Positions 2,997-48,314 of a DNA stretch of 64,000 bases are shown here, piece after piece. Made by a program: the position numbers and the translations under genes. The notes beneath the pieces are model-generated. The model was given only the letters and a program-made list of their open reading frames with translations, was not told where the DNA came from and ran no database searches. Source of the DNA: an uncultured Methanosarcinales archaeon. GTDB lineage: Archaea; Nanobdellota; Nanobdellia; Woesearchaeales; GW2011-AR4. The DNA lies in the NCBI GenBank assembly GCA_964585935.1, contig CAZPFO010000001.1:20163-84162 (forward strand), given 5' to 3'. Positions within the stretch are counted from its first letter, which is position 1. Every line of letters begins with the position of its first letter.

Positions 2997-3025
2997 CCTA
3001 AACCTCCATTCTTAGATTGATCCAT

Positions 3026-3301: not shown

Positions 3302-3340
3302 CTTAAATCCCTTATTTTTTATTAAAATAGGCTAATCATT

Positions 3341-12012: not shown

Positions 12013-12669
12013 ATGAGGTCAAAAATAAGTGAATTAAATACTATTGAAAAAACAGAAATAGAAAATTTGAGGATTACTTCTCAATATCCAATAATAAAGG
12101 AAAATATTATTTTGTTAAAACAAAATTTATTACCATCACAATTATTTTGTTTACAATATACAATTAAATCCCAAAAACCAAATACGACAAGGCAGTATTA
12201 TGTTTCTATTGTCCATGAATTTTTTATTAGGGAGTTTGGACATAACACGAGTGAACTCAATGAAGTAATAGAAAACCTACAGAATAAAATAAAGAAAAAG
12301 TATGGATTTGAAAATATGTCAAGAAAAGATATTATTGCTAATCTTTTAGTTGACAAAAACATTTATCTTCTTTTAAACCAATCTTTGATGGATGTAGAGA
12401 ATAAAATGAAAAAAGAGGTGGGTGTTAAATTAGATTGGTCCATAACAAATAAGACGGCAATAATAGAAATTATATTAAGAAAAATGAAAGTTAAATTTCC
12501 AACATATACAAAGATTAGCAATTCACTTGAAAAATTAAAATCTTTTGGATTTTTATCTAAGATTGTCGAAGACGGAAAAACTTATTGGACACTTAATAAT
12601 AGATTTTTTTTAGAGTTTAAAGATAAATTTAAGGATATTTTAAAATTAGATATTAATTCTTTTTTGTAA
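12013..12669 (+). CDS. hypothetical protein with a C-terminal wHTH-like segment
   Basis: 218 aa, and the only plus-strand gene of the element. KISNSLEKLKSFGFLSKIVEDGKTYWTLN resembles a winged-helix recognition helix plus wing. Confidence 0.5.
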   Translation: MRSKISELNTIEKTEIENLRITSQYPIIKENIILLKQNLLPSQLFCLQYTIKSQKPNTTRQYYVSIVHEFFIREFGHNTSELNEVIENLQNKIKKKYGFENMSRKDIIANLLVDKNIYLLLNQSLMDVENKMKKEVGVKLDWSITNKTAIIEIILRKMKVKFPTYTKISNSLEKLKSFGFLSKIVEDGKTYWTLNNRFFLEFKDKFKDILKLDINSFL

Positions 12670-13642: not shown

Positions 13643-13702
13643 AATACCTAGAAAATACTAACTCCTATATAAATTATTCCCCCAATATGGAAGTTTATAA
13701 GT

Positions 13703-13717
13703 ATGCCCCTACCGGGA
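13703..13717. repeat. attR-like core, which is the 3' exon end of tRNA-Arg
   Basis: atgcccctaccgGga is the direct repeat of 1273-1287. Confidence 0.65.
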
Positions 13718-13847
13718 GTTTCGCGCATAAGTTTCGAGTGTGCCATAAATTTGCTATGCAAATTTAATTTCACCAAAATTTAATGCCAATCGAACCCGGG
13801 TCACAAAGTCCGCAACCTTGTATTCTTATCCATTAAACTATAGGGGC
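13704..13847 (-). tRNA. tRNA-Arg(GCG) with a ~69-nt intron in the T-loop
   Basis: The minus strand reads GCCCCTA-TA-GTTTAATGGATAAGAAT-A-CAAGG-TTGCGGA-CTTTG-TGAC-CCGGG-TTCGA[~69 nt]CT-CCCGG-TAGGGGC-A. The acceptor (GCCCCTA/TAGGGGC), anticodon (CAAGG/CTTTG) and T (CCGGG/CCCGG) stems all pair. The D arm is irregular. Confidence 0.7.
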
Positions 13848-13984
13848 TTGGAACCTTATTAATAAGGGGCTGTTTATAAATCTTATCTAGCCTATTTAAC
13901 CACTAAACAATGGTGAAAAAACCGAAAGGTTTATAAAGGAGGTTTTGTGTTCTTTTACTAGTATAAGTCTGATAGAAATGGCAG

Positions 13985-15058
13985 ATGGTTAAGATGAATG
14001 AACCAAAACGCTCACCAGGAATAGACCATAATATTTTAGTAGTTAGTAGAGATACTAATACAATAGACAGTATAACCTCTATTTTAGGAGACCGGATTCC
14101 GATTGACAAAAGATATAATATTAAACCAACCACTGATTTTGAAGAAGCTGTTGGGGAATTAAAGAAAAGTTTTTATGAAATTGCTATCGTATCTTCTATC
14201 GAAGAAAGCGATAAGAGTGTTGATTTAATAAAGCATATCAATGATTCTACAGATTTAGAAACGTTAGTTATTGCATTAACACCCAGAGTTTTAAATGAAA
14301 ATCTAAATAACAGGGCTCTTGACGCTGGTGCTACCCTTCTTGAACCAGTTCCAATTTGCCCTGCGAATCTACGTAATACTGTGGAAAGGACACTTGAGAT
14401 ATTGGGAGGTTACACTGATCCATTAACCAAACTATATAAGAAAGAGATATTTCATGAAAGGCTTGGAAAGGAACTAAAAGACCTTTATGGTAGGAGGGAA
14501 GAAGATCACGAGATTGGGAAGGAAAAAAGACACGGAATTAAACAAGCTAGTTTTTTAAAAAGAGCTTATCGAAAAATAGTTACCGAAAATGCTGATCAAC
14601 GTATTGGTGATAACTGCTATTCTTTGTTGTTTATGGACCTTGATAGATTTAAGGGGATCAACGACAAATATGGGCATGGTGTTGGTGATAAGGTATTAAA
14701 AGAAGTTGCAAGTGCAATTACAAGTATAACGCGTTCATCCGATATACAATCAAGGTGGGGCGGGGATGAATTTGGGATTGGTATCAGAGGGTGTAGTTAT
14801 GAAAATGCATTAAATGTTGCTCAAAAAATACTAGAAGCAGTAAATAATATTGAGATTTATGCAGATAGTGAAAGAATTCAAATTGCGACTTCGATTGGGG
14901 TCGTCACCGCTACTACTGGGGAAAAATTCATAGTGGAAGAATTTTTTAAAGCCGCAGATGAAACACTTTACCATGCTAAAGGATTCGGGAGATGTAATGT
15001 AAAAGGCTATCCTGATTATCTGGCTGCTAATAAAGCTAAATTAGCTAATACTAAATAA
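13985..15058 (+). CDS. diguanylate cyclase: degenerate receiver-like domain plus GGDEF domain
   Basis: 357 aa. The GGDEF domain reads LLFMDLDRFKGINDKYGHGVGDKVL...RWGGDEFGIGI. An RxxD I-site (RSSD) sits five residues upstream of GGDEF. The N-terminal CheY-like fold (ILVVSRD..., VIALTPR) lacks the phospho-acceptor Asp. Confidence 0.85.
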   Translation: MVKMNEPKRSPGIDHNILVVSRDTNTIDSITSILGDRIPIDKRYNIKPTTDFEEAVGELKKSFYEIAIVSSIEESDKSVDLIKHINDSTDLETLVIALTPRVLNENLNNRALDAGATLLEPVPICPANLRNTVERTLEILGGYTDPLTKLYKKEIFHERLGKELKDLYGRREEDHEIGKEKRHGIKQASFLKRAYRKIVTENADQRIGDNCYSLLFMDLDRFKGINDKYGHGVGDKVLKEVASAITSITRSSDIQSRWGGDEFGIGIRGCSYENALNVAQKILEAVNNIEIYADSERIQIATSIGVVTATTGEKFIVEEFFKAADETLYHAKGFGRCNVKGYPDYLAANKAKLANTK

Positions 15059-15523
15059 AAAACCCTTAACTTCTTCACTTTTATAATCCGGAAACGTATG
15101 CCAGAATTCTACAACTTTATCGTCTTTAAACTCCAGAACCTTATGCGCCCAGACTTTTTCTGAGAGCTGTTCTTTATAATTTGTTCCTTTTTTGAAGGAA
15201 GCCAGAACTACCTCTTTCTTTGTTAGGTAACCTGGATCTAGATTTATTTTTCTTTTGTTGTTTTCTGAATAGTTTTTTTCAAGATTGGTTGTGAATATTT
15301 TTATACCTGTTAGTTCCCCTTTTTTTATCTCTTTTTTAAAAACAATTATTTTTTTTATTAGGTTTTTGCCCATTTCTTTTTCATAATAAGAAGTAAAGCT
15401 GTCAAAATCATATTCATTGCTTTGTTTTTCAATCTCTCCAAATTCTTTTATTAAGTCTTTAAGGGCTTTTTCGTAAATATCCCTATTGGAGAACATTATT
15501 GCGAGTAAGAGTTTGGTTGGCAT
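15041..15523 (-). CDS. DUF4416 family protein
   Basis: 160 aa. DFDSFTSYYEKEMG...INLDPGYLTKKEVVLAS...FWHTFPDYKSEE matches the DUF4416 signature (F..T.YYe.EMG, NlDPGYl, TYPDY). Confidence 0.75.
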   Translation of the reverse strand: MPTKLLLAIMFSNRDIYEKALKDLIKEFGEIEKQSNEYDFDSFTSYYEKEMGKNLIKKIIVFKKEIKKGELTGIKIFTTNLEKNYSENNKRKINLDPGYLTKKEVVLASFKKGTNYKEQLSEKVWAHKVLEFKDDKVVEFWHTFPDYKSEEVKGFLFSIS

Positions 15524-15609
15524 TTTTTGATAGGATTTTGGTTTAATAGGCTGTAAGAGGAATAATATTTAATAATGTTTCCCATGGGAGTTGATATTCA
15601 GAAAACGGT

Positions 15610-16887
15610 TTAATGTGAATACAAAGACGGGCCTGAACTATCAAGTGAGGGATTAGCTAAGTTGATTAGCTTAGTTCTCCCTGTACTGTCAAATACTTTT
15701 TTAAATAATTTAACGGATTTTGGGTCAAACTGGCTACCCGTATCTTGGACTAATACATTCATCGCTTCCTGGGGTGTTTTTCCTTTTCGGTAAGGCCTTT
15801 TACCAATCATTGCCTGAAATGCATCAGTAACTGCAAATAGGTTGACTGTTCTTGGTAGTTCAGATGAATGAATTCCATGAGGATATCCTTCCCCATCATA
15901 TCTTTCATGATGATGCAATACAATTTTCCCTGCATCGCCAGGAAGAGTTGAGCCAATAATTTTATATCCGTTTTCCGGGTGTTGTTTAACCGTTTCATAC
16001 TCTTCATTGTTTAATTTTCCCGGCTTATTCAATATGTCCTCAGGTATTCCAATTTTTCCAATATCATGCATGCTTCCGCCCCACAAGATTGAATCTAACT
16101 CATCCTGACTAAACTTTCTTTTAGAGGCTACATATATCGCCATACCTACAGCTCCTTCTGAATGCACAGCTGTCCAATCGCTTTTTACTGCAAGAGACTT
16201 ATACATCAAGTTAAGCGTAGACTCATGCTGCCCCATATATATAAAATAGGCCGAAGTCTTGAAAGCAATATATTCAAATAACCACCTTTCCTGATCATTG
16301 AGCCTATGTCCGGAATTTCTATTTGCAACAAGCGAGCCTACAATGCGTTTTCCCATGTAAATAGGGGAAGCCATATAATGAGTAGCGGTTATGTCTTTTT
16401 CTGACGGATTTGGAACTAAATCCATACCCCTTTGAGTATACTTATGTTCCGTGATTCCTGTACTCCGCATGACTTCCTTTCCGGCAGCTTTTATCCTTGC
16501 AATAACATCCTTACCGGATCTTTTACTAAAGTCTATGGTTGAACCGCGTATCATCAGGGCATTTTTGCCCAGGGCCCCCTCCTTTTTTTCCATGAGGGTT
16601 ACATCAGCCTTAAATTCATCAGAGATTAAGCCGACTAATTTTTCTGCAGGCGGGGGGATAAGGTGGGTGTTGCTATACTCTGCAAAAAGAGAATAAATTT
16701 TTTTATCAAATTCGTTTGTCCTTCTGTAAATCGTATTTTCTTGTGATAATCTTTTTTTTTCTTCGATTGCAGCGCAATATAATTCTATAATCGGTGTTGT
16801 ATCTTCCTTTCCACTAACAATCTTAGAAAGAGCCTTCTTAAGGTCATCCACATCTCCTGAACTAGCTTCACCCCCTCTATCATTCAT
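15610..16887 (-). CDS. GAF-domain HD-GYP phosphodiesterase (c-di-GMP hydrolase type)
   Basis: 425 aa. The C-terminal HD-GYP domain reads HSEGAVGMA...GGSMHDIGKIGIPEDILNKPGKL...HHHERYDGEGYPHG. A GAF-like sensor region lies N-terminal to it. Confidence 0.85.
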   Translation of the reverse strand: MNDRGGEASSGDVDDLKKALSKIVSGKEDTTPIIELYCAAIEEKKRLSQENTIYRRTNEFDKKIYSLFAEYSNTHLIPPPAEKLVGLISDEFKADVTLMEKKEGALGKNALMIRGSTIDFSKRSGKDVIARIKAAGKEVMRSTGITEHKYTQRGMDLVPNPSEKDITATHYMASPIYMGKRIVGSLVANRNSGHRLNDQERWLFEYIAFKTSAYFIYMGQHESTLNLMYKSLAVKSDWTAVHSEGAVGMAIYVASKRKFSQDELDSILWGGSMHDIGKIGIPEDILNKPGKLNNEEYETVKQHPENGYKIIGSTLPGDAGKIVLHHHERYDGEGYPHGIHSSELPRTVNLFAVTDAFQAMIGKRPYRKGKTPQEAMNVLVQDTGSQFDPKSVKLFKKVFDSTGRTKLINLANPSLDSSGPSLYSH

Positions 16888-17042: not shown

Positions 17043-20000
17043 TCAATAACCCTTCAAACTAATCTGGCCTTTTCTTTTGTTCTCTGGAACCTCTTTTACT
17101 TCTTCACCTACTTGTTTCTTGACAGCCAGGGCAGTCTTCTTTCCGAGAATCTGCTCCAGAACTTCTAATTTTACTTTTTTAACGTCTGCTATATCTTTTA
17201 TTTTGTTTCTGTAAAGCGCTCTTGCCCTTACCCTTCCAACCTGCCCCAGCTTTAATAAAGGCAGCAGCTCTTCCTTGACGCCATACTTCAGCCTGAGCCT
17301 TAATTTGACAATCTCCTTAATCAGGGGCTTGAAGTGCAGTAGTTTACTTAACTCTTCACTGCTGTACAATAGCCAGTCTGTAATGTCTAATTTAGCCCTT
17401 AATTCACCAGGCCTTACTGCATATCCTTCCAATAAAAACTCCTCATCTTTTTCATTAGCCCAGTCCTGGAGCATCATTGCTGTTTTGACAGAATTCAAAA
17501 AGTCTTCGTACTCCTGCTCGTACATCGAAGGCTCTTTTTCCAGCAAAAAACTATTCTCTATGACCAGTTTTTCCTGCACCTTCTCGTATTCCTTGACTTT
17601 TACCCTCAATAAAGGCCTCATCTCCAGAGTATGGGATGTCATCTGTAAAAATGAGAAAGAGCTCATCCTTCTGTCAGAGGCTTCCCTTAAGCAGCATATA
17701 AAGAAATATGCAGTCAAAGGGTCAATATAAAGCTCTGCAACCCTCTTGCCTATTATTGTAGCCTTTACCTTAAAATCATCCATCTCATCCGCGCTTTTAA
17801 AATCTTCTCCTTCTTTTGCAATGAATTCCCACTCTGAAAGAAGGTCAAGCATCTTCATAATGATGTTTTCAAGCTTATCCATATCTGCAAACTGGAATGC
17901 CCAGAAAGTCCTGCTGAAAAATTTTATAATCTCTTTTTTGCTTCTTGTGAAATTCGCCGCAATCAGGCTTAAGATATAAGTCCTTAAAACAGGCTCTACA
18001 GCCAGCTTAGAATAGATCTCTTCTGGATTGCCAAGTACATAGTTCTCGTAAATCCTGTTTTTTTCAGGTTCAGTGGAGGCTATTGCAATTGCCTCGCCTA
18101 CATTATCAAATTTTGGGCGGCCAGCGCGGCCAGCCATCTGCAGGTATTCTAAAACAGGGATGTATGTTAAGCCTCTAGGGCCATATCTTCTTAAGTCTTT
18201 TATGATAGATCTAAAAGCTGGAAGGTCAAGGCCATACGAATTATGCACTATAAATCCATTAGCAACAAACATATGATCATTTTTAGGATTTTGAGGCAAT
18301 TCAACATCATAAACCTCTTCTTCACAATCAACCCTTTTTATTTCCCGTATAACATCCCAAAATATATCTCCTTCAAAATCTGAATCTCTCCATCCTTTCT
18401 TGATTACCCAGCCTAATTGGTTGCTACATAGTGGGCATTTGCGTAATTGAAAAAATTCATCAATTTTCTTCCCTTTTTTGATTATATTTTTAAAAATCCA
18501 TTCTCCGAGTGTATTGAGGCTCCAGAACCACTCTGTATTGCTTCTACTTCCAACTCTTCTTTTTTTTATTAATTCATAATGGTGGTTTAAGCTGCTATCA
18601 TTCTTTTTTGGTTCGCAACTCAAAATCTTTTTTAATTTCCTAGATCCTAATTCCTTATTCTCCCCGAGTAGTTTAATAACTTTTAATTTGATTTGCCCCC
18701 ATTTTTTTTGATCTTTCGTTCTTCCAGAAAAAATATCTTTGTAGATTTTATAGCTGCAATTGTTACATAAAACATAATTTAGGTTAGAACATAATTTAGC
18801 AATTAAATCAATAAGGCAATTCTGTTTTCTTTGAATATTAAAACCAATAAATCTGTAGAAATCGATTATGCTTCTTTTTTGATGTACAGTCAACTCAAAC
18901 TGGGGCAAGGTAAGGTATTCTCTTTCATAAATTTTCATAATGCCTTCTTTTCTTTTTCTTATCCTAGAGACTATCCCAAACCTAAGAAGGTTTTTTTGTA
19001 TTTGTTTGACTAATTTTTCTGAAGTGTTGCTAAAACCAACTCCTAATCTCTTGTCTACGTAACCATCTGTATCAAATAAACCTTTCAATAACCATGAAAT
19101 ATTTTCGAAATCCATTCTCATTAAATTTTCAGAAATATGTTTTTTATCTCTTTTTTCTACCCCGCATCTTACTAAAAATTCTCTAAACCACTTATTTTTG
19201 CCAAAAACCAGGCTGGGTGTGCCATGGTAAGTTTTTGTTTTCCTGCAATTTAATTTCAACCTGTTACATATCTCCTCAACATTTAAAAAAACCTCATTGT
19301 CCATTCCGACTATAGTTGGGCTTCCTTTATACTTAATTTTTCCACAATTTGTTTCTGCTCCAGAGTATCCATCTCCCAACATAAGCCCTATGAAATAAGA
19401 TAGTTTATGGTCAAATTTATAATTCGGAATGGGGATGTTATTATCAAAAATAAAATCCATAATAGAAGGAATTTTTATATGTTTAAGATTCAACCTCCCA
19501 ATTGTTGCTATTTTATCTTTTTGGCTGATATTTTCTGCTGGAACCACCATCTTTCTGTCTTTTCTTTTAATGAGTATTTTATGATTTGGCGTAACTTTTA
19601 TTGAATAACCTGAAACTGAAGAAATTTGAATAAGTTTTGAAGAGTTCATAATCCGATTAACTTTTTTAGCTTTCATAGAAATTAACTTATTTTTGGAAAG
19701 CGCAAAAAGTGGATTAGAACTCTTAAACTTTGAAACTTCAGTTTCGGACATATCATGCCAAATCATAGCATCTTTTGATAAACATAAAGTAGGAGTACAG
19801 CATATCACCTTTATCTTTCCTTCCCTGAAATTGTCTTCAATCAACGCTCTCTGTTTCTGGGTGAGGCCTGCATGATGAAAAGAAATCCCTTTCTTGATGC
19901 AATAAGCCAGCCTTGTACACTGTTTTGTCGGCTTCGATAATGCTTTTAAAGCCTCTTCGCTTAAGTTGTTTAAAGCCAAGCTTTCTGTTTTGATCTTTTT

Positions 20001-20141
20001 TGAGATGTCTTCTGCAGTTTTTTCTGCACTTCTCTTAGTGTTGACAAATACTAAAGCCTGCTTGTTGAGCTTAATGGTGTCGAGAACTATATTGAGGACA
20101 TCATTGTCAGTTTCGTGAGGGATTTTTTTAATAGTGGGCAT
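17043..20141 (-). CDS. hel308: Hel308/Ski2-type helicase, C-terminal part only (RecA2-WH-ratchet-HhH), interrupted by an intein
   Basis: Motifs present are IV ALVFVNTKRSAE, IVa FHHAGL, V CTPTL[intein]SYGLDLPA and VI QMAGRAGRP. The C-terminal HhH is LGQVGRVRARALY. There are no Walker A or DEAH motifs and no upstream coding space. The likely start is MPTIKK at 20141, although the ORF track extends to 20210. Confidence 0.8.
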   Translation of the reverse strand: MPTIKKIPHETDNDVLNIVLDTIKLNKQALVFVNTKRSAEKTAEDISKKIKTESLALNNLSEEALKALSKPTKQCTRLAYCIKKGISFHHAGLTQKQRALIEDNFREGKIKVICCTPTLCLSKDAMIWHDMSETEVSKFKSSNPLFALSKNKLISMKAKKVNRIMNSSKLIQISSVSGYSIKVTPNHKILIKRKDRKMVVPAENISQKDKIATIGRLNLKHIKIPSIMDFIFDNNIPIPNYKFDHKLSYFIGLMLGDGYSGAETNCGKIKYKGSPTIVGMDNEVFLNVEEICNRLKLNCRKTKTYHGTPSLVFGKNKWFREFLVRCGVEKRDKKHISENLMRMDFENISWLLKGLFDTDGYVDKRLGVGFSNTSEKLVKQIQKNLLRFGIVSRIRKRKEGIMKIYEREYLTLPQFELTVHQKRSIIDFYRFIGFNIQRKQNCLIDLIAKLCSNLNYVLCNNCSYKIYKDIFSGRTKDQKKWGQIKLKVIKLLGENKELGSRKLKKILSCEPKKNDSSLNHHYELIKKRRVGSRSNTEWFWSLNTLGEWIFKNIIKKGKKIDEFFQLRKCPLCSNQLGWVIKKGWRDSDFEGDIFWDVIREIKRVDCEEEVYDVELPQNPKNDHMFVANGFIVHNSYGLDLPAFRSIIKDLRRYGPRGLTYIPVLEYLQMAGRAGRPKFDNVGEAIAIASTEPEKNRIYENYVLGNPEEIYSKLAVEPVLRTYILSLIAANFTRSKKEIIKFFSRTFWAFQFADMDKLENIIMKMLDLLSEWEFIAKEGEDFKSADEMDDFKVKATIIGKRVAELYIDPLTAYFFICCLREASDRRMSSFSFLQMTSHTLEMRPLLRVKVKEYEKVQEKLVIENSFLLEKEPSMYEQEYEDFLNSVKTAMMLQDWANEKDEEFLLEGYAVRPGELRAKLDITDWLLYSSEELSKLLHFKPLIKEIVKLRLRLKYGVKEELLPLLKLGQVGRVRARALYRNKIKDIADVKKVKLEVLEQILGKKTALAVKKQVGEEVKEVPENKRKGQISLKGY
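18240..19784 (-). mobile_element. 515-aa intein with a LAGLIDADG homing endonuclease, inserted in helicase motif V
   Basis: The N-terminal splice junction is TPTL|CLSKD and the C-terminal junction is FIVHN|SYG. The LAGLIDADG blocks are YFIGLMLGDGY and LLKGLFDTDGYV. There are extra Cys pairs (CNNCSYK, CPLCSNQ). Confidence 0.85.
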
Positions 20142-20245
20142 TTTAAAAGGGAGATTTCCGGGGTTTATTAAATTTTTTAAAGATATGATGAAATAATAAC
20201 AAAAATCCAATAAATATATAAATAACTTTAATAAAAAATATATCC

Positions 20246-23961: not shown

Positions 23962-24075
23962 TGGCTCCGCTGAGATTTGAACTCAGGACTTCGAGAGGCT
24001 TTAAAAAAACCTTCACTCGATCTCCGACTGAATTGTTATCAGTCGAGCGCTCTAACCAGGCTGAGCCACGGAGCC
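23962..24075 (-). tRNA. tRNA-Ile(GAU) with a canonical 37/38 intron and a probable second intron in the variable region
   Basis: The minus strand reads GGCTCCG-TG-GCTCAGCCTGGTTAGAGC-G-CTCGA-CTGATA[ACAATTCAGTCGGAG]A-TCGAG-...-CTGAG-TTCAAAT-CTCAG-CGGAGCC-A. It is 114 nt against ~76 expected, so a 15-nt intron plus ~23 extra nt (hairpin GGTTTT...AAAGCC) lie before the T stem. Confidence 0.8.
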
Positions 24076-31347: not shown

Positions 31348-32238
31348 TTATATAATTATGAAATAGAGTCCTAAGAGCATCAACAAAGCCGAGATTATTT
31401 TTATACTTAATGTTTTTCTGTCAATTGCTTCTTTTATTATCCTCGGGAAGAAGATTGAGAGTATGACAGCTAAAATCAATGTGAAGATGTTCTGGAAACC
31501 CCCCACTAAAGTTACTAGTGAAACTGGTGCTCTCTGGATTGCAAGATAAGCAAAGACCACGCCTGCCATGCCTATTCCCTCTACTGTGTACATAAAAGAA
31601 CCTTTTTTAATTCCAAATTCTTTTATTGTTTCTTTTGTTTTTTTAAGCGCGGTTTTTGAAAAAGCCAGTACAACTAATACTAATATAAGAAAACCAGTTT
31701 CTCTCAATATCATCATTGTTGAAAAGTTTGTAGATGATGCAAGTTTCAACAGAAGGTTATGGACAGCCCAGATAAAAGAAGACAAAATAATTAACAGAAC
31801 GCCTTTGCGTAGTAATCTGCCATTTTTATGGTCTGATGAGATGAGGAAAGTGCCTGAGATTATCAGGATAAAAGCAAGATAATGTTTTGGAGATAGCATC
31901 TCATTGAGGAACATAGTTTCGAGCACCAATACAAACAGGGGAGTGATCCCATATAAGGTTATTATCCTTGAGACTTCTTCTTTGTAGAGCACATATATAA
32001 AAAAATAATATCCCAACCCTGCAAGAACGCCTGACAAAAGAAGTAAAAAAGTATTTGTTAAGCCTGGGTTTCTGAAAGGCTCCATAAAAAGAAGAAGCAG
32101 GCTTAAGAATGCTGTTGGAGCTATAAATAAAAGATAGCCAAGGGGGCTTTTTATATGCTTAACGCGCATGAACTTTACAATTATACTGCCAAATGCCCAC
32201 AGAAAAGGGGCCATTAAAGCAAAAAATATCCATTCCAT
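31348..32238 (-). CDS. EamA/DMT-family transporter
   Basis: 296 aa with 10 predicted TM helices in two EamA-like halves. Confidence 0.7.
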   Translation of the reverse strand: MEWIFFALMAPFLWAFGSIIVKFMRVKHIKSPLGYLLFIAPTAFLSLLLLFMEPFRNPGLTNTFLLLLSGVLAGLGYYFFIYVLYKEEVSRIITLYGITPLFVLVLETMFLNEMLSPKHYLAFILIISGTFLISSDHKNGRLLRKGVLLIILSSFIWAVHNLLLKLASSTNFSTMMILRETGFLILVLVVLAFSKTALKKTKETIKEFGIKKGSFMYTVEGIGMAGVVFAYLAIQRAPVSLVTLVGGFQNIFTLILAVILSIFFPRIIKEAIDRKTLSIKIISALLMLLGLYFIII

Positions 32239-32239
32239 C

Positions 32240-32497
32240 TTAACTCCTTACAAATCTGCTGTGGCCCCACTGTATCAGCAAATCGACTTTTAGATTTTCC
32301 AAGCTTTGCGGGGTGTCGCATGCCCCGAAACAGGAGCCCATCCAAATAAGAACGCCAGCATTTGTTTTAGTTTCTATCTCTTCCTTTATTTCTTTTGCCT
32401 TTGGCTTCAGACCGTCAGGTAACTGGATGCAGACTGTTTTTGCCCTTGATTTTTTTATTTCAGAGATTGCTTTGGAAAGTTCTAAATTATATTGCAT
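32240..32497 (-). pseudogene. dph2: N-terminal 85-aa remnant of diphthamide synthase Dph2
   Basis: AKTVCIQLPDGLKPKAKEI...GSCFGACDTP...DLLIQWGHS aligns with the first ~85 residues of archaeal Dph2 (~340 aa). The ORF stops 1 nt before the EamA gene start, leaving no room for the rest. Confidence 0.65.
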
Positions 32498-33892: not shown

Positions 33893-34193
33893 TTTCTTCT
33901 CTAACCTTCTCCTTTGAGTTTAGGATTAGCATATCTTCTTTGTATTTGTTATTCTTAATCTCTTTCTCAACTTTCTTCTTATCAACTTTTTCAGAGTTTA
34001 CTATCTCTGCAAGCTCCATTGAAACCACCCTTATTTCTTCACTACTCATTAGTAGATATGTTATATATAAAGGTTTCGGTTTTGGTTAAATATCTGGGAA
34101 AATAGGGTAGCAACAATAGAGAAGATGAGGTATTATGAAGTGAGAATGTAATGTGGTTCTAGACGAATGTGAGAAAGTTGAAAGAAAGCTAGA

Positions 34194-34427
34194 CTATCCA
34201 ACATACTTAAAACGAGGAACTTCTTTACCATCAACATTAACATATTCAAGAAACATCTTTTTTGGTCTAACCCATAAAGCATTTTTGCCAAACTCTTCTG
34301 AATCATAAAGAGCGCGATATACTACCAATTCTTCCAAAGTTTCGCTGTGTCTTGCGACACTAATAACTTCATAGAATTTGCCTTTGTAATGTTGATACTT
34401 TCCTAGCTTTAAGTCTTCCATAAGCAT
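34194..34427 (-). CDS. DUF1653 family protein (cassette 1)
   Basis: 77 aa. GKYQHYKGKFYEVISVARHSETLEELVVYRALY...LWVRPKKMF is the DUF1653 signature. Confidence 0.75.
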   Translation of the reverse strand: MLMEDLKLGKYQHYKGKFYEVISVARHSETLEELVVYRALYDSEEFGKNALWVRPKKMFLEYVNVDGKEVPRFKYVG

Positions 34428-34473
34428 AGATAAGTTTACATTATTAAAAACTTTTCGGGAGGGCTTTCTTTTT

Positions 34474-34546
34474 ATTGAACATGATTATTGTTAGTCGCAC
34501 CGACCCCTACGAAGTTGGCGAGGCAAAGAGCGTAAGCGACGAAGAG
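34474..34546 (+). repeat. cassette junction A: core ATTGAAC-N9-GTTAGTC plus a GC-rich insert (accgacccctacga subfamily)
   Basis: attgaacatgattattgttagtcgc followed by accgacccctacgaagttggcgaggcaaagagcgtaagcgacgaagag. It shares the 16-nt gcaccgacccctacga with junction D. Confidence 0.7.
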
Positions 34547-34605
34547 TTAATTTTGAGATGCTTCTATCAATAATTTTAAATATAAGTTAGTGATATAATA
34601 AAATA

Positions 34606-34821
34606 ATGGAAATATTGTACATACAAATTGGTGGAATCGCATTATTGATTGGTATATTCTTATATATGGCATTAAAGCCAAGATATTGCCCTAAGTGCAA
34701 TACCAAATTACCAATTTGGAGGAAACCTAAGAATAAAAGGCAAGCATTATGGGGTGGAGATACATGTCCAAATTGTGGGTGTGAAGTTGATAGAAAAGGA
34801 AAAGAAGTTACTAATTCTTAA
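34606..34821 (+). CDS. small membrane protein with a C-terminal zinc ribbon (cassette 2)
   Basis: 71 aa with an N-terminal TM (IGGIALLIGIFLYMAL). The Cys pairs are CPKC...CPNC. Confidence 0.6.
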   Translation: MEILYIQIGGIALLIGIFLYMALKPRYCPKCNTKLPIWRKPKNKRQALWGGDTCPNCGCEVDRKGKEVTNS

Positions 34822-34835
34822 GCATCTCAAAATTA

Positions 34836-34917
34836 ATTGAACATAAAACTTGTTAAATGCCCCGACGACCGAAGGGAGGAGAGCGCAGCGTGGTCGAGGA
34901 GCGAAGCGACGAAGAAG
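34836..34917 (+). repeat. cassette junction B: core ATTGAAC-N9-GTTAAAT plus a 57-nt GC-rich insert (cccga / gagagcgcagcgtgg subfamily)
   Basis: attgaacataaaacttgttaaatgc followed by cccgacgaccgaagggaggagagcgcagcgtggtcgaggagcgaagcgacgaagaag. Confidence 0.7.
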
Positions 34918-35040
34918 TTCAAAAAAGGCCGTAAAATAAAGGACAGAGTCCGATTAAGTAAAAGGAGAAAGAGCCCCAGAAAATTGATACTCAATTTCAA
35001 ATTAAAAAGATTTAAATAGATGTAATTTTTAATTTAAAAC

Positions 35041-35559
35041 ATGAAAAAGATATTTACTTTAATTTTATTGGTAATTCTCTTTGTAACTTCATGTGAAGGG
35101 GAAATTAAAGAAATTAAAATAGACAATCTTAGTGATACATTAACTTTAAAAAAATCTTTGGTTTGTCCAATACAAGGAACAGACCCAACAGGAAAGATAG
35201 TCAAAACTACTATATATATTGAGGATAAAAAGGCAAGAATTGAAACAGATTACACAAATGAAAAAACCTACACAATATATACCAAGAAGTTATTATATGT
35301 TTGGGGGGATGCTTCAAACCAGGGAGAAATATTAAATCTAGAGTTTTTTGAAGAATTGCAAGGAAAAGACTATGATGAAGTGCAATCATTAAAGGAATAT
35401 TTAGATGGAATTGATGAATCTTCTACTATGAGAGAACCAAATTCTGAAGTAATCTGTAAAATTCAGTATATAGATCCATCTCAATTCGTTCCACCAAGCA
35501 ATATAGATTTTAAAGATATGGTAGATGAATTAGGGTCGGCATTGGAACAAGTTGGATAA
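35041..35559 (+). CDS. putative lipoprotein / secreted protein (cassette 3)
   Basis: 172 aa. The signal is MKKIFTLILLVILFVTSCEG, with a lipobox-like Cys. Confidence 0.6.
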   Translation: MKKIFTLILLVILFVTSCEGEIKEIKIDNLSDTLTLKKSLVCPIQGTDPTGKIVKTTIYIEDKKARIETDYTNEKTYTIYTKKLLYVWGDASNQGEILNLEFFEELQGKDYDEVQSLKEYLDGIDESSTMREPNSEVICKIQYIDPSQFVPPSNIDFKDMVDELGSALEQVG

Positions 35560-35610
35560 ATTAAATCTATATTTTCTGGGGCTCTATTAAAAATAAAAGG
35601 CCTTTTTTGA

Positions 35611-35700
35611 ATTGCATTTAACCCTTGTTAAGTGACCCGAGTGGAGCGAAGCGGAACGAGAGCGCAGCGTGGCAAGGCGGAGTGAAACGGAGCCGCAGAG
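35611..35700 (+). repeat. cassette junction C: ATTGCATTTAAC-CCTT-GTTAAGT plus a 65-nt GC-rich insert
   Basis: attgcatttaacccttgttaagtga followed by cccgagtggagcgaagcggaacgagagcgcagcgtggcaaggcggagtgaaacggagccgcagag. Confidence 0.7.
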
Positions 35701-35718
35701 TATCACTCAAAAATTTGC

Positions 35719-36048
35719 TTATTTAACTGTACAAATATTATTTATGCATCTTAGTTCATATGCGCAACTTACTTTGCAGTATGGTCCATCATAATTCTTA
35801 CATTTCTTCTCTTGAGCATCCAAATATTTTTGCCAGTGAATTTTGTTTATCGGCACACCACAATCGCAAGAACATTCTACCATTGCCATAATACAATCTT
35901 CATCCACTTCGCAAACTTGATCTGTAGAATTAACTTCAATCGGTTTATTAATGGGTTTAATGTTTTTGGATGGGAAATAATATACTATAATTATTCCGAT
36001 AACTAAAATCAGCAAAAAAATTATTATAAATTTTTTGATTCCTTTCAT
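35719..36048 (-). CDS. secreted/anchored Cys-rich small protein (cassette 4)
   Basis: 109 aa with an N-terminal TM (FIIIFLLILVIGIIIVYYF). The ectodomain has 11 Cys (CEVDEDCIMAMVECSCDCG...). Confidence 0.6.
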   Translation of the reverse strand: MKGIKKFIIIFLLILVIGIIIVYYFPSKNIKPINKPIEVNSTDQVCEVDEDCIMAMVECSCDCGVPINKIHWQKYLDAQEKKCKNYDGPYCKVSCAYELRCINNICTVK

Positions 36049-36107
36049 AATGTTAGATATATTATAGATTATATTTAAACATTTCTAAAGCAAATTTTTG
36101 AGTGATA

Positions 36108-36228
36108 TTTCACTTAACGCTTGTTCAACGCACCGACCCCTACGAGCGTTACTTCACAAAGTACAGAGCGAGTTTTTCTATAGAAAAAGAAGCTCTGAGC
36201 GGAGTGGGGGGAGGGGAGTTAAGGCGCA
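36108..36228 (+). repeat. cassette junction D: ACTTAAC-GCTT-GTTCAAC plus a 97-nt GC-rich insert with G-tracts
   Basis: tttcacttaacgcttgttcaacgc followed by accgacccctacgagcg...gagcggagtggggggaggggagttaaggcgca. Confidence 0.7.
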
Positions 36229-36270
36229 GGCGGTTCACAAGTTAAGAAACAGAAGAAAGGAAAGAATTTT

Positions 36271-36513
36271 TTATTTTTTAATCTTATTAATAATAAATCT
36301 TACAAGTTTATATAATAGAAATAATATGGTCGCATAAAAAAGAAAACCAATTACATATACATAAAAATCGAAAAAACTTGGGGGTCCTCTACAAAATCCT
36401 CCCTTACACACATATGTGAGTTTATCAATAAAAAAAGCAACAACGCCAAAGATTAAAGAAAGTATGATAATCAATACGAAGGGTTGTTTTTTAAAAAATT
36501 CTTTCCAATTCAT
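36271..36513 (-). CDS. small two-TM membrane protein (cassette 5)
   Basis: The start is taken at the ATG at 36513 (MNWKEFFKKQPFVLIIILSLIFGVVAFF...). The ORF track extends to a TTG at 36555, inside the flanking repeat. Confidence 0.55.
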   Translation of the reverse strand: MNWKEFFKKQPFVLIIILSLIFGVVAFFIDKLTYVCKGGFCRGPPSFFDFYVYVIGFLFYATILFLLYKLVRFIINKIKK

Positions 36514-36690
36514 AATTATTATAGAATATAGCAAGTATAAATAAGTTTCTGTCAAGTGAACCGCCGAGCATTAATTGCGTTGAACCGTACATATACGCAA
36601 AACCTTAATATTTGCCTTTTTAGGCTCTGAAATGGCTGAATTTTTAAGTCCAGAGGCTGATTTTTCGTATCTACTTAAAAATAAAGAAAA

Positions 36691-37512
36691 TCAATACTTC
36701 CCTTTTGGATAGCTCCCTAAGACCTTAACAAACAATGTGGTGGCTTCTATCTCGCTCAGGGCCAGTTTTATATTGTCGTCATTCAAGCCGCCTTCAAACT
36801 CTACAAAGAAGACGTATTCAAAAGGATCTTCTGGAATGGGCCTTGACTCCAGCTTTGTCATGTTGATGTTGTTTTTTGAAAGGCGCTGGAGGCAATTGAC
36901 CAAAGAGCCAGGGTAATGCTTTGCCTTGAATGCTATGCTTGTTTTTTCTTTTTTCAGGTTTTTAGGAACCTTGCCTTTTTTTACAAAAACAAAAAATTTA
37001 GTCAGGTTGTTCTTGTTTTTTTCTATGCCTTTTTTTAATATACTTAAACCATAAATTTCAGCGCATAGTTCAGATGCAATGGCACTTTCCCCATCTTTTC
37101 CGCTTTCTGCAACCATTTTTGCAGAGCTTGCTGTATCATATTTCGGGATAGACCTTATCTTATGCTTTATTAAAAAATCACGGCACTGCTCAAGGGCATG
37201 CTGGTGGGAGTAGGCTTTTTTGATGTTCTCAAGCTTGTTCCCCTTATGAGACAGCAGGTTATGGCTTATTCTAAGAAATACTTCTGCAATTACAAAAACA
37301 TCTTCCTTCAAGAGCAGGTTGTAGTTTATAGCAACGCTTCCTGCAATTGTGTTTTCTACAGGAACTAAACCGAAATCAGCTTTGCCTTTTGTTACAGCTT
37401 CAAAAACTTCCTCAAAGCTGCCGTAACCAGCTGCCCCTGCATTTTTACCAAAATGCCTGAAGATAGCTGCTTCGCTATAAGCTCCTTTTATTCCCTGGTA
37501 TGCTACTTTCAT
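36691..37512 (-). CDS. pheA: prephenate dehydratase (with a C-terminal ACT domain)
   Basis: MKVAYQGIKGAYSEAA...VPVENTIAGSV...TKFFVF...LESRP. Confidence 0.85.
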   Translation of the reverse strand: MKVAYQGIKGAYSEAAIFRHFGKNAGAAGYGSFEEVFEAVTKGKADFGLVPVENTIAGSVAINYNLLLKEDVFVIAEVFLRISHNLLSHKGNKLENIKKAYSHQHALEQCRDFLIKHKIRSIPKYDTASSAKMVAESGKDGESAIASELCAEIYGLSILKKGIEKNKNNLTKFFVFVKKGKVPKNLKKEKTSIAFKAKHYPGSLVNCLQRLSKNNINMTKLESRPIPEDPFEYVFFVEFEGGLNDDNIKLALSEIEATTLFVKVLGSYPKGKY

Positions 37513-45815: not shown

Positions 45816-46214
45816 CTAATCATACAAAACCATAGCCAAGATTCCTTTTACCTGACTGTAATTTATTATATCCTGACCTAGACTATTATCCCCTTCAACA
45901 ACAATGAAATTAGGCTGTATTGAAACAATCCTGTGGATTCTTTCCACATCAGTTGTATAATGGATTATATTGCCTTGTTTCAAATTTTGATTGGTATATT
46001 CATTAAGACACACAACATTTCCCTCAAAAAAAGAAGGATTCATGCTTGAGCCCCACATCTTTCTGCAATAAACATTATTGACACTCATTTTGCTATCATC
46101 AAAAGAATAATCAATATCTGTATGGTGGGCTTGTATGTAATTCTGTTTGAAATATGTATGATCTCCGGAACAGCCTATGAGCAAAATACAAAGTAAAAAG
46201 ATTATTTTTTTCAT
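45816..46214 (-). CDS. S26/S24-type signal-peptidase-like serine peptidase, lipoprotein
   Basis: MKKIIFLLCILLIGCSG is the signal. The GSSMNPSF catalytic Ser motif is present. The start is taken at the ATG at 46214. Confidence 0.6.
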   Translation of the reverse strand: MKKIIFLLCILLIGCSGDHTYFKQNYIQAHHTDIDYSFDDSKMSVNNVYCRKMWGSSMNPSFFEGNVVCLNEYTNQNLKQGNIIHYTTDVERIHRIVSIQPNFIVVEGDNSLGQDIINYSQVKGILAMVLYD

Positions 46215-46260
46215 CTGTACAGTACAGGTAACAATAACTAATTTATAAATCTTACTGTAC

Positions 46261-46416
46261 ATGTACGGTATGAGAAAAAATTATGTTAATGTCAGCATAC
46301 CATCGGACCTAGTATATTCGCTGGATGAAATCTGGAAGAAAAGCAAGAAAGCGTATAGAAGCAGGGCAGAGTTTGTGATAGAAGCTGTCAGAGAGAAGAT
46401 GAGTAAAGAAAAATAG
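46261..46416 (+). CDS. ribbon-helix-helix (CopG family) protein (51 aa)
   Basis: Hand-translated as MYGMRKNYVNVSIPSDLVYSLDEIWKKSKKAYRSRAEFVIEAVREKMSKEK. Below the ORF-track cutoff. Confidence 0.55.
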   Translation: MYGMRKNYVNVSIPSDLVYSLDEIWKKSKKAYRSRAEFVIEAVREKMSKEK

Positions 46417-46463
46417 CTTTTATTTACCTTGAATTTCTGAAAACTCAAAAAAATAAATAAAAT

Positions 46464-46784
46464 TTATTTCTCCTTCACATGGGGAAATCTCATAAACTTC
46501 TTGCAATTTTGGCAGAAATAAACAACCTTGCCATCGTGCATTCTTACCCTGCAGTTTACGCCGGGAACCAGATACTTGTAGCAGTGCTTGCAGAACCTTC
46601 TTTTTAGCTCAGGTTTTATTCTTACCTTGTATTTCATGGCTATTTTTCTTGCCAGATGGACGTATCTATTGGATAATTTCGGGTCTTCCTTAAACATACC
46701 TTTAGCTTGCTTAAACAGGGTTTCTATTCTTTCTCGAGCTATTTTCCTATGTTCTGTAGGCTTTTTAGAGTATTTTTTCTTCAT
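46464..46784 (-). CDS. rnp4: RNase P protein component 4 (Rpr2/RPP21)
   Basis: IARERIETLFKQA...LSNRYVHLARKIAMKYKVRI...FCKHCYKYLVPG...VVYFCQNCKKF. The start is taken at the ATG at 46784, because the upstream extension in the ORF track reads through a GC-rich element. Confidence 0.85.
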   Translation of the reverse strand: MKKKYSKKPTEHRKIARERIETLFKQAKGMFKEDPKLSNRYVHLARKIAMKYKVRIKPELKRRFCKHCYKYLVPGVNCRVRMHDGKVVYFCQNCKKFMRFPHVKEK

Positions 46785-46873
46785 ACTATTGAATATACGC
46801 AAAATATATAATAAACTTGCTGTTCTAGATGAAGTCAAGTTAGGTCTTTTATGATTATTTTTGAGATATATTC

Positions 46874-46964
46874 GGCAACAACAACCTTGGCTTCGGACGG
46901 ACTTCGTCCTACTCGGCACCCCGGATGGGGCAACCCCCGCCTAGCCCTCGCCATTGTTGTTGCC
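46874..46964. ncRNA. 91-nt GC-rich stem-closed element (candidate small structured RNA, family unknown)
   Basis: ggcaacaacaa...ttgttgttgcc forms an 11-bp closing stem. The interior has overlapping GGGG/CCCC hairpins (ccccggatggggcaacccccgcc) and ggac-ttc-gtcc. It is followed on the plus strand by tcattttt. Confidence 0.45.
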
Positions 46965-47054
46965 TCATTTTTGATTTATCTGCTTAAGTTGACTGTACTC
47001 TATTTGACCCTAATAGGGGTAAGTCTTAAATAACAAATAAAGATACCAATAAAA

Positions 47055-48314
47055 ATGTTTAAATTTATAAAAAAGTTATTTGCTAAGGAAGAAGAGAAAG
47101 TGCCGGAAAAAGAGGATATAGCATTAGACGCTCTAGGAGATTGGTTTGATTCCAAATCCAAGATGGTTTTTGATGAATTAAATGAAAATATAAAAATCAT
47201 AAAAGAAAAGATAAGTTCTGAGATAGAAAAAACAAAATCAAATCTTGAAGTTTTAAAAAATGCGAAACTGAAAAATCCGAATATACCTCCAAGGGCTAAA
47301 AATATGATGGAAGGCAACAGGGAGTCTTACTTAAAAGCGGTTTCTAATTTTGTTGATCGTATAGTAATAGTGAATGATGCAGGTGAAATATTAAATTTTT
47401 GCAATGGCTTTAATAAGGTTGTTGAAAGCCTTGGAAAAAGCACAACCAGAAGCTACCATCTTCTTAAGGAGTTTTTTGCGCATGAAGTAACAGATATAGC
47501 TATAAATATCAGGAATATTGAAAATTCAGTCAAAGAGCTGAAATCTACCATAGAAAACTCAAATATAGACAAAACTGAGGATATAAAAAAAGATATTTTG
47601 AGCATAAAAAACAAAATAACGCAGAAAAAGGATTTTGAAGGAGAATTAAAAAATAAAGAGGCAGAATTAATTAAATTAAAGAAGGAGAAAGAAACCTTGG
47701 TGGGGGATATTGAATCTGTTAAAAACTCAGAAGGTTATCTGGATTTTAATAAATTAAAAGAGGAAAAGGAGGAATTAAAAAGACAAATTAAGGAAATTGA
47801 AAACAATATTTTCCATTCTTTCTCAATATTGGAGAGGGCATTAAAAAAATATTCAAGGATAGTCCTCGAGAATCAAAAGCTGCTTGAAAGCTATCTGGAA
47901 AATCCTGTAAATTCCCTTTTGAGGGACAAGGATATGATGATAATAAAAATACTTGATGGGCTGGAAAAGAATATTGTGCAAGGCAATATAGAGTTAGACG
48001 AGAAAAAGAAAAACAAGACATTGGCAGAAATAAAAAGAGCGGATAAGCAATTTTTTATTGATATTTTAAAAGAATATTATGGATTGAATGAAAAATTGAA
48101 AACAACCCGGGATAAAATACAGAATAGCGAGGTAAAAAAGAGTCATGATGGATTGAATGAAAAATTGAATCAAGTTGAGGGCAGTTTAGAAAAAATAGAT
48201 AGTAGCAATGAAAATTTAAAAAAAGAGATAGAAAGAATAAATATAGAGCAGATTAAGGATAATTTGCAGGAAGAGATAAACAAAACAATAAAAACGGATA
48301 TTTCTATTTCTTAG
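47055..48314 (+). CDS. long coiled-coil protein, unknown function
   Basis: 419 aa, K/E/N-rich, with heptad repeats throughout. Confidence 0.6.
   Translation: MFKFIKKLFAKEEEKVPEKEDIALDALGDWFDSKSKMVFDELNENIKIIKEKISSEIEKTKSNLEVLKNAKLKNPNIPPRAKNMMEGNRESYLKAVSNFVDRIVIVNDAGEILNFCNGFNKVVESLGKSTTRSYHLLKEFFAHEVTDIAINIRNIENSVKELKSTIENSNIDKTEDIKKDILSIKNKITQKKDFEGELKNKEAELIKLKKEKETLVGDIESVKNSEGYLDFNKLKEEKEELKRQIKEIENNIFHSFSILERALKKYSRIVLENQKLLESYLENPVNSLLRDKDMMIIKILDGLEKNIVQGNIELDEKKKNKTLAEIKRADKQFFIDILKEYYGLNEKLKTTRDKIQNSEVKKSHDGLNEKLNQVEGSLEKIDSSNENLKKEIERINIEQIKDNLQEEINKTIKTDISIS

Follow-up and report, generated by a model that had tools for sequence, protein, structure and literature searches.

A likely integron-type cassette array with short, hairpin-less junctions on the chromosome of a Woesearchaeota-type archaeon

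Described cassette systems and the archaeal locus

Integrons and clusters of attC sites lacking integrases (CALINs) have been described in archaea, with Nanoarchaeota (DPANN) among the attC-bearing phyla (Ghaly et al. 2022, PMC9668308). In class 1 and 2 integrons, unusual cassettes of the ΔattI type carry a hairpin-less 3' site of only 14-18 nt, of the form ...AAC-AAA-G|TTRRRY (Partridge 2009; Gonzales Machuca et al. 2026, PMC12901181). Such sites, for example AAACAAAGTTRRRY, were recombined by IntI1 in experiments, and a crossover between an L box and R'', leaving R''-short spacer-R', has been proposed as their origin (PMC12901181). Finally, partial loss of attC can leave little beyond R'', giving truncated attCs and fused cassettes that are usually inert, with their genes fixed (Fonseca & Vicente 2015, PMC4670013). 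Here, we analyze 64 kb of DNA from an uncultured archaeon (contig CAZPFO010000001.1 of assembly GCA_964585935.1, positions 20,163 to 84,162; henceforth the window), in which five small genes just downstream of pheA lie between directly repeated short cores (Table 1). The locus lies on the chromosome of a Woesearchaeota-type archaeon, and we consider it likely to be a cassette array of the integron type that has no integrase close by, in other words a CALIN-like array in a hairpin-less variant.

With archaeal CALINs (PMC9668308), the locus shares tandem single-gene cassettes on an archaeal chromosome without an adjacent intI, GTTRRRY/RYYYAAC cores with an R'' complementary to the cassette start, and cassette genes of unknown function with bacterial relatives. 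Archaeal CALINs are, however, defined by attC hairpins that standard tools detect, and their open reading frames (ORFs) mostly point in one orientation, whereas the array has no L''-VTS-L' (VTS, variable terminal structure) at any junction, and its genes run both ways and have their own TATA boxes. The window sites AACAAGGGTTAAAT and AACAATAATCATGTTCAAT are comparable with the ΔattI sites AAACAAAGTTRRRY and AATAAAATGTTRRRY, a likeness to the consensus of PMC12901181 that is one of form only (R''-AAGG/AAGC/AAGTTTTAT/AATAATCAT-G|TT). ΔattI-type cassettes are rare single cassettes amid canonical ones, stem demonstrably from a resident attI and have been proven to recombine; in the array, by contrast, every junction is short, and neither attI nor IntI was found in the 64 kb. 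Truncated attCs (PMC4670013) are sporadic, occur in mobile integrons and often fuse two ORFs into one transcription unit, unlike the array, where the pattern is uniform throughout and the genes are independently promoted. A preliminary description of the window had matched the locus to no described system, and was wrong in this respect, as an integron-type array comparable with these three kinds of system is the better account.

The junctions were recovered by a repeat search of the window as a family of direct repeats with four 31-nt copies (at 34473, 34835, 35610 and 36106). The conserved part, [xxxxAAC]-N4 or N9-[GTTxxxx]-G-CCGA, has the same orientation at all four intergenic junctions, which have the core [RYYYAAC]-N4/9-[GTTRRRY] in common. 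The spacers from R'' to the next G|TT measure 4 nt (AAGC, AAGG) or 9 nt (AAGTTTTAT, AATAATCAT) and form two classes, AAGS and AA..AT of 9 nt. In a pattern scan, the conserved junction pattern gave three matches against 0.38 expected. In three consecutive cassettes, the opening and closing 9-mers are reverse-complementary at 9/9 positions (GTTAAATGC/GCATTTAAC, GTTAAGTGA/TCACTTAAC and GTTCAACGC/GCGTTGAAC). As chain signature we took three linked pairs in succession, each made of a GTT 8-mer and its reverse complement at the close of the junction that follows; in 934 kb of sequence scanned, a chain of three such end-to-start pairs exists only at the array.

Inside these boundaries, the genes are bracketed by inverted repeats. 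When 74 non-overlapping ORFs of the window were ranked by the length of the longest perfect inverted repeat around them, ranks 1 to 3 fell to the three central cassette genes (20, 17 and 15 nt), over a background with a maximum of 13 nt and a median of 8 nt. The pattern is more than chance would produce. The cores and repeats of that description are present at the positions it gave, exactly or within 1 nt, and its list of five small genes is correct. Its repeat pair 34547/34822 turns out slightly longer than claimed (17 nt), and the identity that it saw in three cassettes between the opening 7-mer and the reverse complement of the closing one extends to the 9/9 positions given above. Its 9-bp pair around the DUF1653 gene (34181-34189/34463-34471) exists but is no better than background, 9-nt flanking repeats being common in the window.

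Beyond DUF1653 and a weak zinc ribbon, Pfam recognized nothing in the five cassette proteins, and exact-protein look-ups of the 94-, 80- and 77-aa products matched no record. An exact TTTAAATA box stands at -31, -30 and -31 of the start codons of the 71-, 172- and 109-aa genes, respectively; the 64 kb hold 19 occurrences of this box, 3 of them inside cassettes. The placement suggests leaderless or short-leader archaeal promoters within the cassettes.

Table 1. Features of the array; cassettes are numbered as in the text and their parts listed in minus-strand order
Feature	Position	Strand	Details
Array	34177-36585	read on minus (36585 to 34177)	five cassettes; just downstream of pheA, chromosomal
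Junction core A	34474-34496		ATTGAAC-N9-GTTAGTC (GTTAGTC = 34490-34496)
Junction core B	34836-34858		ATTGAAC-N9-GTTAAAT
Junction core C	35616-35633		ATTTAAC-CCTT-GTTAAGT
Junction core D	36112-36129		ACTTAAC-GCTT-GTTCAAC
Inferred crossovers	36585/84, 36118/17, 35622/21, 34842/41, 34480/79		plus coordinates
Cassette 4	36118-36585	minus	first in minus-strand order; 80/94-aa gene; start G|TTCAACGC 36585-36577; left repeat arm 36565-36556; right repeat arm 36238-36229; E4 36228-36132; R'' GCGTTGAAC 36131-36123; spacer AAGC 36122-36119; G 36118
Cassette 3	35622-36117	minus	109-aa gene; start TTAAGTGA; left repeat arm 36107-36088; right repeat arm 35720-35701; E3 35700-35636; R'' TCACTTAAC 35635-35627; spacer AAGG 35626-35623; G 35622
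Cassette 2	34842-35621	minus	172-aa gene; start TTAAATGC; left repeat arm 35611-35599 + 35584-35571; right repeat arm 34984-34971 + 34930-34918; E2 34917-34861; R'' GCATTTAAC 34860-34852; spacer 34851-34843; G 34842
Cassette 1	34480-34841	minus	71-aa gene; start TTCAAT; left repeat arm 34836-34820; right repeat arm 34563-34547; E1 34546-34497; R'' GACTAAC 34496-34490; spacer 34489-34481; G 34480
Cassette 0 (terminal)	34177-34479	minus	DUF1653 gene; start TTCAAT; 9-nt inverted repeat 34471-34463 / 34189-34181; R''-like TTTCAAC 34183-34177, without E module, without subsequent GTT box
Inverted repeat	34547-34563 / 34820-34836		17 nt, 100%
Inverted repeat	35701-35720 / 36088-36107		20 nt, 100%; longest gene-flanking repeat of window
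Inverted repeat	34970-34997 / 35558-35585		28 nt, 82%; 15-nt perfect core
Inverted repeat	36229-36238 / 36556-36565		10 nt
E2 module	34861-34917	plus	purine-rich; mini-hairpin motifs CCGAAGG, GCGCAGC, GCGAAGC
E3 module	35636-35700	plus	motifs GCGAAGC, GCGCAGC, GTGAAAC; homologous to modules 5' of R'' in L010
E4 module	36132-36228	plus	sole E module that folds alone, long imperfect hairpin; z = -3.4 (plus), -1.9 (minus)
DUF1653 protein, 77 aa	34427-34194	minus	Pfam DUF1653, E 2e-28
Transmembrane/zinc-ribbon protein, 71 aa	34606-34821	plus	Pfam zinc ribbon weak
Lipoprotein-like protein, 172 aa	35041-35559	plus	reverse within its cassette
Cys-rich membrane-anchored protein, 109 aa	36048-35719	minus	
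Membrane protein, 80/94 aa	36513/36555-36271	minus	two starts
TTTAAATA boxes	34575-34582, 35011-35018, 36072-36079		upstream of the ATGs of the 71-, 172- and 109-aa genes

Relatives with classical attC sites and the reading direction

Relatives of the cassettes were found at three external loci, L010 (GCA_017973895.1, a classical attC array with all genes forward), L004, and L089 (IMGVR_UViG_3300001335_000566, 71 kb, GC 0.26, a contig catalogued as viral). The attCs of L010 span 90-200 nt and consist of R'' (GCCTAAC-type), L'', VTS, L', a spacer ATAC and R' (GTTAGGC-type); in the consensus hairpin of five L010 sites and one L089 site, 20 of the 31 pairs show compensatory changes. The window array resembles this attC family in the GC-rich module, here called E, that lies 5' of R'' (E2 and the L089 module are 82% identical), in long cassette-specific repeats that extend the stem, and in one common cassette gene family with an identical repeat core. 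It differs in that the family has an L''-VTS-L' hairpin of 90-200 nt with strong covariation where the window has 4 or 9 nt.

The common gene family is that of the 109-aa protein, whose homologues are 60-82% identical and include a 93-aa cassette protein of L010. That cassette starts with G|TTGTGA-CGAAA-TATCACTCAAAAA and ends with TTTTTGAGTGATA-CATC-R''(GCACAAC), followed by a full attC. In cassette 3 of the window, both the flanking repeat (TATCACTCAAAAA / TTTTTGAGTGATA) and the G|TT...GAAAT start are the same, and the repeat lies at an equal distance from G|TT. Gene-flanking repeats also occur in other L010 cassettes, a 173-aa gene having repeats of 17 bp and a methyltransferase/MutH-like pair repeats of ~60 bp. 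As L010 cassettes carry such repeats outside classical attCs, we conclude from the sequence comparison that the cassette-specific repeats of this attC family continue the ordinary R''/R' stem on its basal side. The preliminary description saw a differing geometry in crossovers at the palindrome centres, but these reduce to the stem extension: the repeats look central in the array because the inner L''-VTS-L' hairpin is absent. As for the L010 pair itself, its genes (2205-3990) encode an N6_N4 methyltransferase and a MutH-like endonuclease, a restriction-modification pair in a single cassette, which an imperfect inverted repeat of ~60 bp surrounds and which has an E module upstream of R''.

Two other accounts of the repeats have to be weighed here. 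They could be substrates of a DNA invertase that flips each gene, which would explain both the perfect 17-20-nt inverted repeats around segments of 256-560 nt and the mixed gene orientation. Such invertons are very improbable, however, since the repeats are cassette-specific and share no invertase consensus, promoter and gene would turn over jointly so that nothing would be switched, and the orientation of repeats and genes is unchanged in L010, L004 and all contigs of the locus. Moreover, E is always on one side, window profile searches found no invertase gene nearby, and the L010 repeats co-occur with classical attCs as stem extensions. It is equally hard to credit that each gene sits in a small transposon, similar to a miniature inverted-repeat transposable element, and that these units were inserted in tandem. 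Terminal inverted repeats do bracket each gene, but they differ between units and form no family, there is neither a transposase nor a target-site duplication, the directly oriented core and E lie outside the repeats, and L010 accounts for the repeats as attC stem extensions. Other copies of any unit, bounded by its repeats and flanked by target-site duplications, were found neither in homology searches nor in the window.

The second recurring cassette is that of the 172-aa protein, which has a single relative, present on L004 and L005. Window positions 35108-35622 are 91% identical to L004 3130-3648, and the alignment stops exactly at ATTTAAC, with this box included; from within the 172-aa gene through ATTTAAC, the DNA is 91-95% identical, and directly beyond it is unrelated. 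The neighbouring junction of L004 is a classical attC on the minus strand (26.7 bits, E 4e-4, with the covariance model R1 described below). Between the window and L004, the repeat arms have 0/36 differences, against 5/27 in the remaining non-coding positions (Fisher p = 0.011). The comparisons show that the canonical G|TT point marks the cassette boundaries and that two cassettes, the 172-aa one in L004 and the 109-aa one in L010, recur elsewhere as discrete units with breakpoints there. In L004, a distal cassette (1440-1520, minus reading) starts with GTTAAAT and ends with ATTTAAC-AA, without a GTT box or hairpin after it; this bare terminal R'' resembles window positions 34177-34183.

The E modules, present in four of the five cassettes, are GC- and purine-rich on the plus strand, 50-97 nt long, and located after each GTT box, to the left of the accompanying gene. 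A 17-mer, GCACCGACCCCTACGA(+1), is common to E1 and E4, and GAGAGCGCAGCGTGG and GGAGCGAAGCG are common to E2 and E3. Within the window, clusters of GNA-type mini-hairpin motifs (GCGAAGC, GCGCAGC, CCGAAGG) occur only in E2 and E3, on the plus strand; GNA-like motifs are also found in the VTS of L010 attCs. The oligonucleotide d(GCGAAGC) forms an unusually stable DNA mini-hairpin. That the E modules might themselves be hairpins or attCs was considered and rejected, as E1-E3 have no fold. E2 together with its R'' is identical to the L089 module at 65 of 79 positions; the latter reads TTTTTTGAAC...CCACGCTGCGCTCTCC...GTCGTCGGGGC-GTATAAC and is followed by AAGGGATATACGG, VTS and CGTATATCCCTG-AC-GTTATAA, a complete attC. 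Two further E modules lie immediately 5' of R'' in L010. Because of this homology with E-R'' in L089 and L010, the AAC box after each window E is taken as R'', and E is, by the same comparison, a conserved 5' extension of the L010/L089 attC family, strongly conserved across hosts. Its position is fixed relative to R'' whatever the direction of the gene, which points to a part of the recombination site rather than to gene expression.

E also bears on the view that the junctions play no part in recombination and are intergenic repeats of an ordinary kind (REP-like elements, terminators or small-RNA elements) located by chance between small genes. GC-rich islands in AT-rich genomes are often structured RNAs, and E4 folds well. 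Nevertheless, there is only a very slim chance that this view is correct: E modules and core do not occur again anywhere in the 64 kb outside the array, Rfam gave nothing relevant on the window or, at a permissive threshold, on the array region, E1-E3 are unfolded, and the switch of pairing partner and the external homology breakpoints at the cores would be unexpected for regulatory repeats.

Two of the external loci offer further observations. Downstream of an 845-aa gene, L089 has an apparently lone E with an L010-family classical attC (1214-1385); L089 was the one true match of four pattern scans of IMG/VR, amid random matches in GC-rich phage contigs, and could be a virus-borne cassette or a misclassified episymbiont contig. 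L010 contains compound attCs (293-432 and 6291-6452), in which an outer R''/R' encloses an E-like stretch and an inner hairpin starting from GCATAAC, and which the covariance model matches in part only (18.7 bits).

The minus strand is the better reading direction for the array, and the crossover then falls at AA|C (plus-strand coordinates), because E sits 5' of R'', because the orientations of the L010 cassette and the L004 attC fit, and because the L004 breakpoint precedes the spacer. In this direction, each cassette consists of G|TTRRRY (the R' remnant), 0-13 nt, a repeat arm, the gene, the other repeat arm, E, R'', the spacer and G. The preliminary description had placed the crossover on the opposite side of the spacer, at the G|TT of the plus-strand GTT box, a plus-strand reading that the L004 homology, which ends before the spacer, and the orientations of E, L010 and L004 all disfavour. 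Complementarity is 9/9 across cassette ends versus 3-6/7 within a junction, and the partner changes exactly at each core. Crossovers at the outer repeat arms are therefore excluded. Two attC models, one with the crossover there and with core and E as loop, the other of the form A1-E-A2-spacer-R' (79-113 nt), were both rejected for this partner switch, for want of L pairing, and because the L089 and L010 homology identifies the box after E as R''. In cassette 4, start and R'' are complementary at 9/9 positions and the 10-nt flanking repeat is perfect. In cassette 1 the corresponding boxes pair at only 3/7 positions and thus are not complementary, an exception that the preliminary description had already allowed for, and in cassette 0 the start and the terminal R''-like box pair at 5/7.

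Absence of hairpin and integrase, and the state of the array

At all four junctions, L''-VTS-L' is absent, with 4 or 9 nt where related cassettes have 90-200 nt. We built a covariance model (R1) on five classical attC sites, which recovered three held-out sites (44.5, 43.8 and 26.7 bits). It found no match in the 64-kb window, the best score in 33900-36800 being 7.7 bits (E 0.9) with filters off. In a rule-based scan, L boxes in the array pair at 3-4/7 positions versus 7/7 in most L010 sites (5/7 in two). Three of the four junction segments (A-C) fold no better than shuffles, and only E4 holds a hairpin of its own. Circularized in silico at the inferred crossover, the cassettes are predicted to form structures of 106-150 nt with -20.6 to -41.9 kcal/mol (cassette 4, -41.9), in which the repeats make the basal stem, E branches off sideways, and R'' pairs with R' in an apical stem that has the 4-9-nt spacer as its loop. 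Judging from the attC architecture in PMC12901181, this basal stem would be unable to replace the L box in the usual orientation, because it is the AAC/GTT end of the R box that points towards the loop.

Measured against the usual marks of a CALIN, the array gives a divided picture. At least two attCs less than 4 kb apart, with R''-L''-VTS-L'-R' and paired boxes, were not found in it. Boundaries of the G|TTRRRY type with complementary RYYYAAC were found, at 9/9 positions in three cassettes, 5/7 in the terminal one and 3/7 in cassette 1, and so were discrete units, in the two cases of L004 and L010. The ORFs are not of the mostly promoterless, one-orientation kind (3 on the minus strand, 2 on the plus strand in the ORF list of the window; TTTAAATA at three genes).

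Neither intI nor attI was found in the 64 kb, so the window holds no complete integron, and a tblastn search with an approximate IntI1 query gave no similarity in the window. The preliminary description was right that no integrase is adjacent. The ORF it had pointed to as the nearest tyrosine recombinase (12653-13642, 329 aa) has R..HxxR..Y-like motifs of such enzymes (FRKSE, LRHSSAT, YVRRS); it has no Pfam or PDB match, scores 26.6 bits against XerA/IntI NCBIfam models with a cut-off of 220, and shows no IntI-like features. This divergent tyrosine recombinase lies in a low-GC region (12013-16887, GC 0.28) and is followed by GGDEF, DUF4416 and HD-GYP genes. For an archaeon such a cyclic-di-GMP set, which is of bacterial type, is unusual, and it is likely an island gained by horizontal transfer.

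Together, our data suggest the following model for the array. IntI-type recombination at G|TT would have brought in the cassettes. Their short R''-spacer-R' sites might then have arisen in either of two ways, between which the data do not discriminate: by deletion of the inner hairpin, or by an aberrant crossover between an L box and R'', as proposed for ΔattI-type cassettes, which would leave R''-short spacer-G|TT. With regard to the first way, the four bases that directly follow R'' in L089 are AAGG, as in the spacer of cassette 3. At present the array is probably sedentary, or at best weakly mobilizable in trans, a state to be expected because it has no correctly oriented L box and no integrase was found in the 64 kb. 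Today it would serve as a group of accessory genes for membrane or secreted proteins, each with a promoter of its own. The integron core/inverse-core logic and the single-gene units of the preliminary description were well seen, and they are backed by the L010 and L004 cassette homology. Its suggestion of a cassette-capture platform for surface proteins gains no support, as neither integrase nor attI was found and the locus gave no sign of turnover.

Several points weigh against this model. No junction passes the classical attC test, the defining element of integron cassettes, and neither intI nor attI was found in the window. Mixed gene orientation and own promoters are unlike canonical cassettes, which are promoterless and forward. 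Perfect 17-20-nt repeats and 9/9 boxes speak against an old, decaying fossil, and four short junctions out of four are hard to obtain by independent accidents. Nor does the model give E a role. External cassette contexts that support mobility number only two (L004 and L010), and other homologues of the 109-aa and 71-aa proteins are in ordinary non-cassette contexts, bacterial or high-GC: a metagenome scan for the 109-aa family gave ten loci, one of which is the window's own sequence (L036), and none of the other nine is in a cassette context, while the 71-aa homologue has a high-GC, non-cassette context. In other samples no polymorphism was seen, as their contigs (GCA_006243145.1, GCA_006243215.1, SRR6439360) match the window at 100% identity. 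In nine metagenome-assembled genomes (MAGs) of Woesearchaeota/Nanoarchaeota, aroC-CM-tyrA-pheA is kept and nothing downstream of pheA matches the window; the nearest, with pheA 65-73% identical to that of the window, are too distant, and cassette gain or loss at the locus can therefore not be read from them.

Some of these points would be expected if the system were active and natively hairpin-less, with double-stranded two-box sites like attI simple sites or ΔattI sites, served by an integrase in trans or by another tyrosine recombinase (e.g. 12653-13642), and with the basal repeats and E as accessory elements. This is unlikely, though less so than the other alternatives. The short architecture recurs unchanged at all four junctions, where spacers of just two classes occur, the perfection of the repeats and 9/9 boxes suggests recent activity or selection, the repeat arms are spared differences relative to L004, E is strongly conserved across hosts, and IntI1 recombines ΔattI-type sites of 14-18 nt (PMC12901181), which is why some activity of the array is conceivable. 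On the other hand, no second such array was found in the 934 kb of sequence scanned or by the IMG/VR pattern scans, the closest cassette relatives (L004, L010, L089) all bear classical hairpin attCs, two spacer lengths (4 and 9 nt) are unfit for ordinary double-strand tyrosine-recombinase sites, and there is no adjacent recombinase, the 329-aa ORF being without IntI-like features. There is accordingly a small chance that DPANN archaea have functional arrays with short double-stranded two-box cores in place of attC hairpins, whose cassettes are exchanged at the cores by an integrase in trans or a non-IntI tyrosine recombinase; long cassette-specific basal stems and a conserved E rich in GNA mini-hairpins would then assist the cores.

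Genomic surroundings and wider meaning

The archaeal genes of the window include one for an intein-containing Hel308-type helicase, and relatives of its pheA at 65-73% identity were found in MAGs only. The 1055-aa ORF (17043-20210, minus strand) has an apparent intein at residues ~155-658, with NCBIfam matches to intein C-terminal splicing and intein-containing models. To the left of the array, an 85-aa ORF (32240-32497, minus strand) matches positions 1-58 of the 302-position Diphthamide_syn profile and adjoins an EamA transporter gene (31348-32238); by this match it is a truncated dph2, a rearrangement scar ~1.7 kb from the array. Rfam identified a tRNA of 114 nt (23962-24075, minus strand, 50.2 bits) that presumably contains an intron, whereas ARAGORN found no tRNA in the window. 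At ~46000-47500, the cumulative GC skew has its minimum and the dominant gene strand changes from minus to plus, which could mark a replication origin or mere gene-strand bias. With an origin there, leading-strand synthesis would use the plus strand, the array's bottom strand, as template.

The array would probably escape standard integron detectors. Since censuses of cassettes, the archaeal one included, use attC hairpin models, the cassette content of DPANN and other poorly sampled lineages may be undercounted. Two features that the integron papers cited here do not mention also occur in classical arrays, namely the gene-flanking basal stem extensions (17 to ~60 bp) and the E module 5' of R''. 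The bacterial relatives of the DUF1653, 71-aa and 109-aa families are consistent with, but no proof of, cross-domain cassette exchange. If the sites were active, archaea would have an equivalent of the short ΔattI-type sites that work in bacteria, and functional arrays of this kind would capture genes in an integron-like manner without the need for hairpins, a second mode that attC-based surveys would not see. Under the reading that we prefer, the locus may show mobile cassettes in the course of becoming fixed chromosomal genes, with the hairpin lost and each gene under an archaeal promoter of its own.

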